Positions 20,901 to 22,350 of a stretch of DNA of 64,000 nucleotides are shown one piece after another. Every line of letters starts with the position of its first letter. Position 1 is the stretch's first letter. Below the pieces are notes generated by a model. That model was not told where the DNA came from and made no database searches. It saw only the letters and a list, made by a program, of their open reading frames with translations. The stretch lies in assembly GCF_022846255.1 (NCBI RefSeq), contig NZ_AP025682.1; one strand, given 5' to 3'. The position numbers and the translations under genes were made by a program. Origin of the DNA: Escherichia coli (GTDB lineage Bacteria > Pseudomonadota > Gammaproteobacteria > Enterobacterales > Enterobacteriaceae).

Positions 20901-20912
20901 CACCGCAAGGTG
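20901..20912. repeat. IS4 target-site duplication, left copy (caccgcaaggtg)
   Basis: identical 12-mer at 22339-22350 directly abutting the other IS4 end. Confidence 0.85.
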
Positions 20913-22338
20913 TAATGCCAGTCAGTTAAGCAACTGACTGGCTCTTTTTCGGGGCTGTGGGGTATTTCCAGGGCCTCTCCTTTACCACTCTCGGGAAGGC
21001 CCTTTCCCTTCTTGTCGGTAATTTCACAAGTTGTCCCATACTTGCAAGATCGCGCATCAGCTCCGGTATACGTCCCGGTGAAGCGCCCTGCAATGTCATC
21101 AGCATTCTCATCACCATTCCACATGATTCTGAGAAACTCAGTTGATTCGGCCAGTAACCTTTCAGATGTTCCGCCATTTTAATCATCTGATATCTCACCA
21201 GATTATAAGCCAGTAAGACACCCCACAGCTCTTGCTCCACAAGCTCCGGTTTTTTACTTCTCAGCGTCAGCCTGCTCAGTTGCATCGTCTGTTTTATCTC
21301 CCTGTATCCCAGTTCGATTTCCCAGCGATGACTGTACAGATCCGCCATTTCTCCTCCGGGGAAGCGCATGGCGTCCGTCATCGACGTCAGCAGATGGCAG
21401 ACTTTTCCTTTGCGCGTCACGGTCAGCAGGCGGGCTGTCACTTCATTTCCCAGTCCCGGCCACTTTTTTCGTGCCTGCGGGCTGGTTTTCAGCTTCACCA
21501 GATGATCGCCTTTACCCAGTTTTCTGATCTCTTCATATTGCGCTCCCTTTCTGAGAGGTATCATCCAGTGGCGGTGTTCTCCCGCCAGGCTCCAGGCATT
21601 TAACAGTCCCAGTGAGTAATAACCTTTATCCATTAACGTCAGAGTGTTATCGCCGGTTTGTTCTATAAGTTGCTCAGCAAGCTCATTTTCGCTGTTCTTC
21701 ATCGTGCCGAAGGCTGCAGCCGTCAGCAGATGGCTGGTCAGTTCCATCTGGCAGACCATTTTGACCTGCGGGTAGAGCGCCGGGTTCCCGGCATGTGTCT
21801 GGCGGGGGAAGGCTGCATCGTTCTCTGGTGTATCCGGTGTGCGCCAGAACACACCATCGATGGCCAGCAGGGTCAGGCCGCACCAGTGCGGATGCGGCGT
21901 GGCGTTATGCCAGAGCTGCGCTGTTTTCGTGAACACGCGGCGGACAGCCTCACTTCCCAGGCGCTGGCGGGCCTGAATAACGGCACTGGGGGCAACGAAG
22001 GGGCGATTGCCCGGCAGCATGATGTCCAGGCGATTCACAATCTGGTGAAGAGGTTCTTTACGCTCAAGCGCCATGCCAACAATACACCAGACCATCATTT
22101 CGAGGGGAAGACGGCGCTTGCGTAGCGTTACAGTACCTGATTCGGCAAGGCAACGAGAGATGAGTTCGGGGTCGAGGTAATCCCCCAGAGAAGTCAGTGG
22201 GTTACGCAGAGAATCGTAACGGGATACCAGATCAAGAGCCTGTCCAATGTGCATAAAAAAATCCGGAAACAAGTGAGCGTTTCCGGATTCTTACACAGCC
22301 ACTGGATCGGTCAACTGATCCTTAACTGATCGGCATTA
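20913..22338 (-). mobile_element. insertion sequence IS4, 1426 bp, with about 18-bp imperfect terminal inverted repeats
   Basis: ends TAATGCCAGTCAGTTAAG and CTTAACTGATCGGCATTA; single 442-aa transposase ORF; flanked by 12-bp direct repeats. Confidence 0.9.
20926..22254 (-). CDS. insG: IS4 transposase
   Basis: 442 aa from [16 protein letters not shown]; ORF track extends 6 codons upstream. Confidence 0.9.
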
Positions 22339-22350
22339 CACCGCAAGGTG
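22339..22350. repeat. IS4 target-site duplication, right copy (caccgcaaggtg)
   Basis: direct repeat of 20901-20912. Confidence 0.85.

Follow-up and report, generated by a model that had tools for sequence, protein, structure and literature searches.

An intact IS4 copy in the hairpin between rraA and zapB of Escherichia coli and the terminator-like targets of IS4

IS4 was reportedly found in the pheST attenuator by Mayaux et al. (in Gene, 1984), who are said to have put forward the target rule 5′-AAA-N20-TTT-3′ for this element. The related question of how an insertion sequence (IS) responds to transcription from its surroundings was reportedly addressed by Davis, Simons and Kleckner in Cell in 1985, in whose account IS10/Tn10 and IS50 are protected against activation by external promoters. 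Members of the IS4 subgroup are 1400-1650 bp in size, have the end signature -AATR and are flanked by direct repeats of 10-13 bp, and a striking specificity in the target arms has been remarked for IS4 (PMC2266710). Furthermore, several other insertion sequences, such as IS1397 and ISKpn1 (at BIME/REP), ISPpu9/10, ISRm22 and others, insert into extragenic palindromes (PMC1525189).

The IS4 copy considered here lies between rraA and zapB in a stretch of E. coli DNA of 64,000 nucleotides, which was analysed as a whole and is referred to below as the window. From metL to yihY, its backbone runs collinearly with E. coli chromosomes (98.7-99.6% identity to the nearest complete genomes), and it is otherwise free of IS. 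We read the locus as an intact IS4 with a preference for terminator-type targets, situated at a recurrent hotspot, where terminator-like hairpins carried by the IS would replace the terminator that was split, and give this reading a probability of about 0.88. A literature search on rraA, zapB and IS4 found no report of this insertion. The features and their coordinates are collected in Table 1.

Table 1. Features of the IS4 insertion and its surroundings, in positions of the window.
Feature	Position	Strand	Evidence or remarks
rraA, 161 aa, undisrupted	20406-20891	+	TIGR02998 RraA_entero, 297.5 bits, 1-161/161
Left terminator remnant: A6 (20893-20898), GGCACC, GCAA loop, cut-down 3′ stem GGTG	20893-20912		includes duplication copy 1
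IS4, complete, 1426 bp	20913-22338	-	99.6-100% identity, positions 1-1426, to IS4 copies including K-12 insG
Terminal inverted repeat, transposase-distal end, TAATGCCAGTCAGTTAAG	20913-20930	+	pattern search
IS4-borne terminator-like hairpin GCCAGTCAGTT-AAGC-AACTGACTGGC, then TCTTTTT	20917-20949	+	terminator scan (11 pairs) and fold
IS4 transposase gene (InsG-type), 442 aa from ATG at 22254	20926-22254	-	ORF and profile matches
Hairpin AAGAATCCGGAAAC-(loop)-GTTTCCGGATT, then T7 ending at transposase ATG	22255-22292	-	93% complementary inverted repeat and fold
Promoter-like TTGACC-16 nt-AAGAAT, TG before -10; presumed transposase promoter	22287-22314	-	consensus match, 9/12
Terminal inverted repeat, transposase-proximal end, TAATGCCGATCAGTTAAG	22338-22321	-	pattern search
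Right terminator remnant: duplication copy 2 (22339-22350), CC, T6	22339-22358		
zapB, 81 aa, undisrupted	22414-22659	-	NF011951, 178.3 bits, 1-81/81

A sequence-only reading of this DNA had described a 1426-bp element with imperfect terminal inverted repeats of about 18 bp and a single transposase ORF of 442 aa, and both descriptions were confirmed. The two 18-bp repeats begin with TAATG and agree at 16 of 18 positions, and the repeat pattern has no match in the window beyond these two ends, between which lies the only IS4 copy present. The sole long ORF of the element is on the minus strand, like zapB and antisense to rraA; counted from a TTG, it covers 20926-22272 (448 aa), and its stop codon occupies 20926-20928. 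Its product scores 304.5 bits against NF033592 (IS4 family transposase; cut-off 115) and contains the domains PF13006 (IS4 N-terminal; 2-95/95) and PF01609 (DDE; 3-200/200). At the nucleotide level, identity to the insG element of MG1655 is 99.6% across all 1426 bp, while identity to IS4 copies in other strains reaches 100%, with 0 differences from the copies in CMZE120 and PEC011; PGAP gives copies identical to the window IS4 the label 'IS4-like element IS4 family transposase' and does not mark them as pseudogenes. Because the transposase matches the family, and because the element is nearly identical to K-12 insG and identical to other copies, it can be assigned to IS4 itself, and with a complete ORF and both repeats it is also intact, as had been proposed. 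Its length and its duplication also lie within the ranges described for the IS4 subgroup. Judged by its sequence, the element is a classical E. coli IS4, already known and acting as expected.

The insertion is bordered by a target duplication, the exact 12-mer CACCGCAAGGTG, at 20901-20912 and 22339-22350. The identical flanking 12-mers noticed earlier are indeed the only two copies in the 64 kb, where 0.01 copies would be expected by chance and where two or more were obtained in 0 of 100 shuffles. There are 9 nt between the rraA stop codon (20889-20891) and the first copy, and 63 nt between the second copy and the stop codon of zapB (22414-22416). When the element and one 12-mer are deleted, the site becomes AAAAAAGGCACCGCAAGGTGCCTTTTTT, that is, AAAAAA-GGCACC-GCAA-GGTGCC-TTTTTT, a hairpin with the core AAAAAAGGCACC-GCAA-GGTGCCTTTTTT, and the layout of the empty site around the duplication is AAAAAAGG-CACCGCAAGGTG-CCTTTTTT. 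This restored hairpin folds with 12 bp including its A/U extension, at -18.6 and -17.3 kcal/mol on the two strands (z -4.8 and -4.1). The restoration of a hairpin on removal of the element had been claimed before and holds, except that the loop is the 4-nt GCAA and not the 5-nt 'gcaag' given at the time. In the occupied site, the native stem has been shortened and the U-tract swapped for IS sequence on both strands; an Rfam scan returned nothing at the insertion site.

The function of the uninterrupted hairpin can be judged from published Term-seq tables for K-12, in which each 3′ end is listed with 50 nt of upstream and 10 nt of downstream sequence (Adams et al., 2021; PMC7815308 supplement). 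On the zapB strand, a strong RNA 3′ end is found at MG1655 4118843(+), 6 nt past the hairpin GGCACCTTGCGGTGCC, with scores of up to 56,120 in three table entries that were taken as separate conditions. Experimentally, the hairpin of the empty site is the zapB terminator in K-12. The sequence-only reading had regarded it as a terminator shared by the two genes, which stands for zapB; on the rraA strand the K-12 tables call no 3′ end at the hairpin, and expression level or calling thresholds may explain this. The A6/T6-flanked hairpin lies just 8 nt past the rraA stop codon, and a role as the rraA terminator too is structurally plausible.

The position of the insertion in a hairpin is not a coincidence, but reflects the normal target of IS4. 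In a junction survey, the 22-nt right end of IS4 was used to collect flanking sequences from metagenome contigs and from species-representative genomes. Among the 93 distinct right flanks from metagenome contigs, T was present at +17 to +19 in 73-91% (91% at +18) and a T-run in 85%, compared to 13% in random controls. The 113 distinct right flanks from species-representative genomes, which span many gammaproteobacterial genera, among them Aeromonas, Budvicia, Kosakonia, Pectobacterium, Photorhabdus and Edwardsiella, gave values of 78-85% for T at +17 to +19 and 84% for the T-run. In addition, the metagenome junctions favour C at +1 and +4 and G at +9 and +12, which amounts to a GC-rich palindromic core, and where full IS4 elements were surveyed together with both flanks, the left flanks carry A-runs. 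Duplications in full elements with matching flanks were mostly 12 bp long (10 elements), the others being of 11 bp (3), 13 bp (2) and 14 bp (1). Three other E. coli IS4 sites, raiA/bamD, fur/chiQ and ldcC/accA, also consist of an A-run, a GC hairpin and a T-run, with duplications of 13, 13 and 11 bp, respectively.

Furthermore, IS4 sites are predictable from sequence. A position weight matrix derived from 198 junctions, none of them from rraA-zapB, was scored symmetrically at every position of the window after removal of the IS, about 62,500 in all. The rraA-zapB hairpin came out on top, at the exact base 20901 and with a 12-bp duplication. The score of this site is 27.2, followed by 24.3 and 23.5 for the next positions, against a background of -19.5 ± 8.8. 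In our reading, the IS4 transposase selects GC-rich palindromes between A and T runs, resembling intrinsic terminators, and the window element has transposed into such an A-tract/hairpin/T-tract arrangement, the upper 12 bp of the hairpin being duplicated.

The empty site reconstructed from the window exists as such in other strains: of 5426 complete E. coli genomes, 4717, MG1655 included, have it as one contiguous sequence. Besides the window strain, IS4 occupies the rraA-zapB site in 25 of these 5426 genomes, 10 times in the orientation of the window and 15 times in the opposite one, the latter having been found with a synthetic query that carries the inverted IS. An orientation bias or asymmetric target recognition was considered for the first 10 carriers, which all point one way, and is excluded by the 15 genomes with the opposite orientation. 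Eight of the 10 carriers with the window's orientation were fetched, and seven of the eight have the same junctions as the window and the duplication on both sides; three of the 15 opposite carriers were checked, all with identical junctions and the same 12-bp duplication. The left-junction 32-mer of the window has 0 exact matches in species-representative genomes. In GN02350, the zapB-side junction is identical, treF takes the place of rraA on the other side and the duplication is absent. Because of this treF flank and the missing duplication, the locus can be attributed to an IS4-IS4 rearrangement, and the window copy is a potential substrate for rearrangements of this kind. At the same locus, about 700 genomes have a 1.5-kb two-gene cassette instead, neither protein of which has a Pfam match.

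Among the carriers with the window's orientation there are three alleles of IS4, which differ at 5-12 positions, and two of the A-tract that lies 8 bp from the junction. These alleles occur mixed, next to flanks whose divergence reaches 73 of 4313 positions (1.7%) at the side of rraA and 188 of 4350 positions (4.3%) at that of zapB. As both orientations are occupied, there have been at least two independent insertions, unless one copy was flipped in place, and the mixing of IS4 and A-tract alleles across divergent flanks points to several more events. With the same site and the same duplication occupied in 25 other genomes and in both orientations, rraA-zapB can be considered a recurrent hotspot.

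With regard to transcription, the insertion destroys the native, presumably bidirectional terminator on both strands. Terminator-like hairpins sit just inside both ends of IS4, however, and read-through is for this reason probably limited; the splitting of the terminator, as first described, stands, but the read-through envisaged with it is probably short. At the rraA side, the IS4 end hairpin starts about 5 nt inside the element and faces incoming rraA transcription. For the K-12 IS4 copy, Term-seq places a 3′ end of transcripts that enter IS4 from outside just past the same hairpin, at MG1655 4502127(+), with three entries. A second table of the same supplement (PMC7815308) gives a further antisense 3′ end at 4502176, ~50 nt past the end hairpin, which suggests that part of the transcripts may pass it. 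In the window strain, rraA transcripts would most likely now end ~40 nt further on, near 20950, inside the IS.

At the zapB side, the hairpin before the transposase ATG has a core stem of 11 bp, or 15 pairs with its A/U extension in a 130-nt fold. It was not reported by a simple terminator scan, possibly, as we would guess, because the stem extension consumes the T-run, and the K-12 Term-seq tables map no 3′ end there. The -10 hexamer of the putative transposase promoter overlaps the 5′ arm of this hairpin, so the element's own mRNA would be made without it. Read-through RNA from zapB would, on the other hand, contain the hairpin, which is predicted from the fold to stop or sequester such transcripts, and zapB transcripts would most likely end ~95 nt into the IS, just before the transposase start codon. 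Placing the 3′ ends of the window strain at the IS-borne hairpins is a prediction from these folds, and we infer that the effect on rraA and zapB is near-neutral.

The hotspot and the activity of the element could also be viewed differently. It is conceivable that IS4 inserted only once, in an ancestor, and then spread through homologous recombination of its flanks with no hotspot involved, which would agree with the identical junctions and duplication in all intact window-orientation insertions checked and with the frequent recombination of E. coli known in general. This is very improbable, as the same 12-bp duplication borders IS4 in both orientations, which calls for at least two events, barring a flip in place, and the three IS4 alleles, the two A-tract alleles and the divergent flanks combine freely even within one orientation; moreover, rraA-zapB is the top match to an IS4 target matrix that was derived independently of it. 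Nor is the window IS4, with its full length, both inverted repeats and ORF, probably a dead relic that is unable to transpose: it is identical to copies that match at 100% in other genomes, where they occupy many different loci, the hallmark of an allele that has moved recently. Such a relic is improbable even though transposition activity is not readable from sequence and IS4 transposes rarely, accounting for 8 of the 758 new IS insertions recorded in mutation-accumulation lines of E. coli (PMC5009759).

A substantial regulatory effect of the insertion, whether through zapB transcription that enters IS4 and raises transposase levels or through antisense RNA that exits the IS and hits rraA, is rather unlikely. 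The truncated native hairpin and the loss of the U-tract on both strands speak for it, as does the high K-12 Term-seq score at the zapB terminator, which implies strong incoming transcription, and past the transposase stop codon just a 4-bp residual hairpin and T6 are left. Set against this are the hairpin 5 nt inside the rraA-facing end, which functions in K-12, and the one placed directly before the transposase ATG at the zapB-facing end, and a strong cost is made less likely by the persistence of the allele, in either orientation, in 25 genomes. Antisense effects on rraA would have to come from a single weak hybrid promoter-like sequence, ATTACA-17 nt-TATCAT, which straddles the left junction and is directed antisense into rraA; it is a 9/12 match from a scan that gave 5 sites, compared to 2.0 ± 1.5 by chance, and lies within the chance range of that scan. 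An intact IS4 at a recurrent, terminator-type target, with its own hairpins limiting read-through, remains the reading that we prefer.

A broader idea can be put forward tentatively, namely that IS4 is a dedicated 'terminator-swapping' element, which would home to intrinsic terminators in many gammaproteobacterial genera and bring along inward-facing terminators of its own at both ends, and would in this way re-terminate host transcripts within 40-100 nt and shield its transposase from host read-through; we regard this as possible, although doubtful. If true, insertion would be nearly neutral and recurrent hotspots such as rraA-zapB would be explained, and the swap, once confirmed, would be a tidy case of a transposon minimising the cost to its host. 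The A/T-tract rule is old; that IS4 sites are systematically linked to terminators, and that the element supplies replacements for these, may not have been stated explicitly before. For biology at large, the insertion itself carries little weight, being a textbook IS at a fitting target with neither neighbouring gene interrupted, and one practical use is that of a rare strain marker, since about 0.5% of the complete E. coli genomes have IS4 at rraA-zapB.

Compared to the described systems, the window element is closest to IS4 of K-12 (insG), the founding member of the IS4 family and of the IS4 subgroup, with which it shares its length, the 16/18 agreement of the repeats and the single-ORF DDE transposase of 442 aa. 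The 12-bp duplication falls inside the 11-13 bp range of IS4, and the two copies differ only in their chromosomal location and at about 5 point positions, the resident K-12 copy being flanked by ATCTTGGTTCTG. Both the K-12 resident site and the empty rraA-zapB site, with 20 nt centred on the 12-bp duplication, conform to the AAA-N20-TTT rule, to which the survey of ~200 junctions adds a GC-rich palindromic core, so that the targets resemble intrinsic terminators. Like the palindrome-targeting elements IS1397, ISKpn1 and others, the window IS4 splits the centre of an intergenic palindrome and spares the genes, but unlike those that target REP sequences, it has entered a unique terminator hairpin, bordered by A and T tracts, that belongs to no REP family. 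By analogy, the layout of its transposase start would be similar to that of IS10 and IS50, with a structure that forms in a transcript only if it has started outside IS4. The predicted fold in IS4, followed by U7, resembles a full intrinsic terminator, which goes beyond an occlusion of the ribosome-binding site.

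Among 5426 complete E. coli genomes, the intergenic region between rraA and zapB takes three forms. The short hairpin form is found in 4717 of these genomes, a 1.5-kb two-gene cassette occupies the site in approximately 700, and IS4 is present there in 25. The cassette is bordered by hairpins of its own and encodes hypothetical proteins of 224 and 208 aa, neither of which gave a match in a Pfam search.

In E. coli GN02350, the IS4 copy lies between zapB and treF, and a matching duplication is absent. These flanks look like the product of a chromosomal rearrangement via recombination of two IS4 copies, one of which appears to have occupied the rraA-zapB site. 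Two other compared sequences, L244 and L245, show reciprocal exchanges of flanks like that of the GN02350 copy.

A promoter-like site, ATTACA-17 nt-TATCAT, spans the IS4 junction in the window; its -35 hexamer is made up of the IS4 tip and the duplicated target, and it is directed antisense into rraA. It matched 9 of 12 positions, which is inside the chance range of the scan. The position weight matrix for IS4 targets gave its second- and third-best matches in the window at aaaaaaaccaCCGCCGTTGGCGatgg (about 12479) and aaaaaaagCGCCGTACGGCGCttttttc (about 39389, or 37951 with the IS removed), and these predicted IS4 landing sites are both empty.

Coordinates of the features discussed here and of the Rfam matches in the window
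Feature	Sequence	Coordinates	Strand	Source
IS4 copy in E. coli GN02350	L013, NZ_CP095518.1	4006-5431
rraA-zapB intergenic region	window	20892-20912 / 22351-22413
rraA-zapB cassette, example	L004	6293-7813
rraA-zapB locus, also in	L005
Promoter-like site	window	20888-20916	minus	promoter scan
naRNA4 (CssrE / REP325-type), five tandem copies	window	46228-46666	minus	Rfam
naRNA4 (CssrE / REP325-type), one separate copy	window	37587-37664	plus	Rfam
SECIS_3	window	51901-51959		Rfam
ClpQY promoter element	window	17394-17451		Rfam
L31 leader	window	12730-12782		Rfam
ES036	window	32541-32582		Rfam

Positions 1-12900 of the window include an accessory segment, and at least 80% of this stretch is covered in only 658 of 5425 genomes. 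Judged from annotation in other genomes, the segment holds three metallophosphatase/5'-nucleotidase genes, a Tsx-like nucleoside channel and a hypothetical protein. The closest complete RefSeq E. coli genomes reach at most 98.7-99.6% identity to the window, varying by segment, and the best-matching strain also differs between segments; the host lineage is therefore poorly represented or mosaic.

The exact 22-nt IS4 end is present in many gammaproteobacterial genera among the species-representative genomes (L135-L254), including Aeromonas, Budvicia, Kosakonia, Silvania, Dryocola, Pectobacterium, Photorhabdus, Edwardsiella, Pluralibacter, Photobacterium and one Pseudomonas; K. oryziphila has over 20 copies. 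The end also occurs in a 265-bp contig that bears the label Methylobacterium and may represent contamination. Specificity to E. coli is far from true for IS4-like ends.
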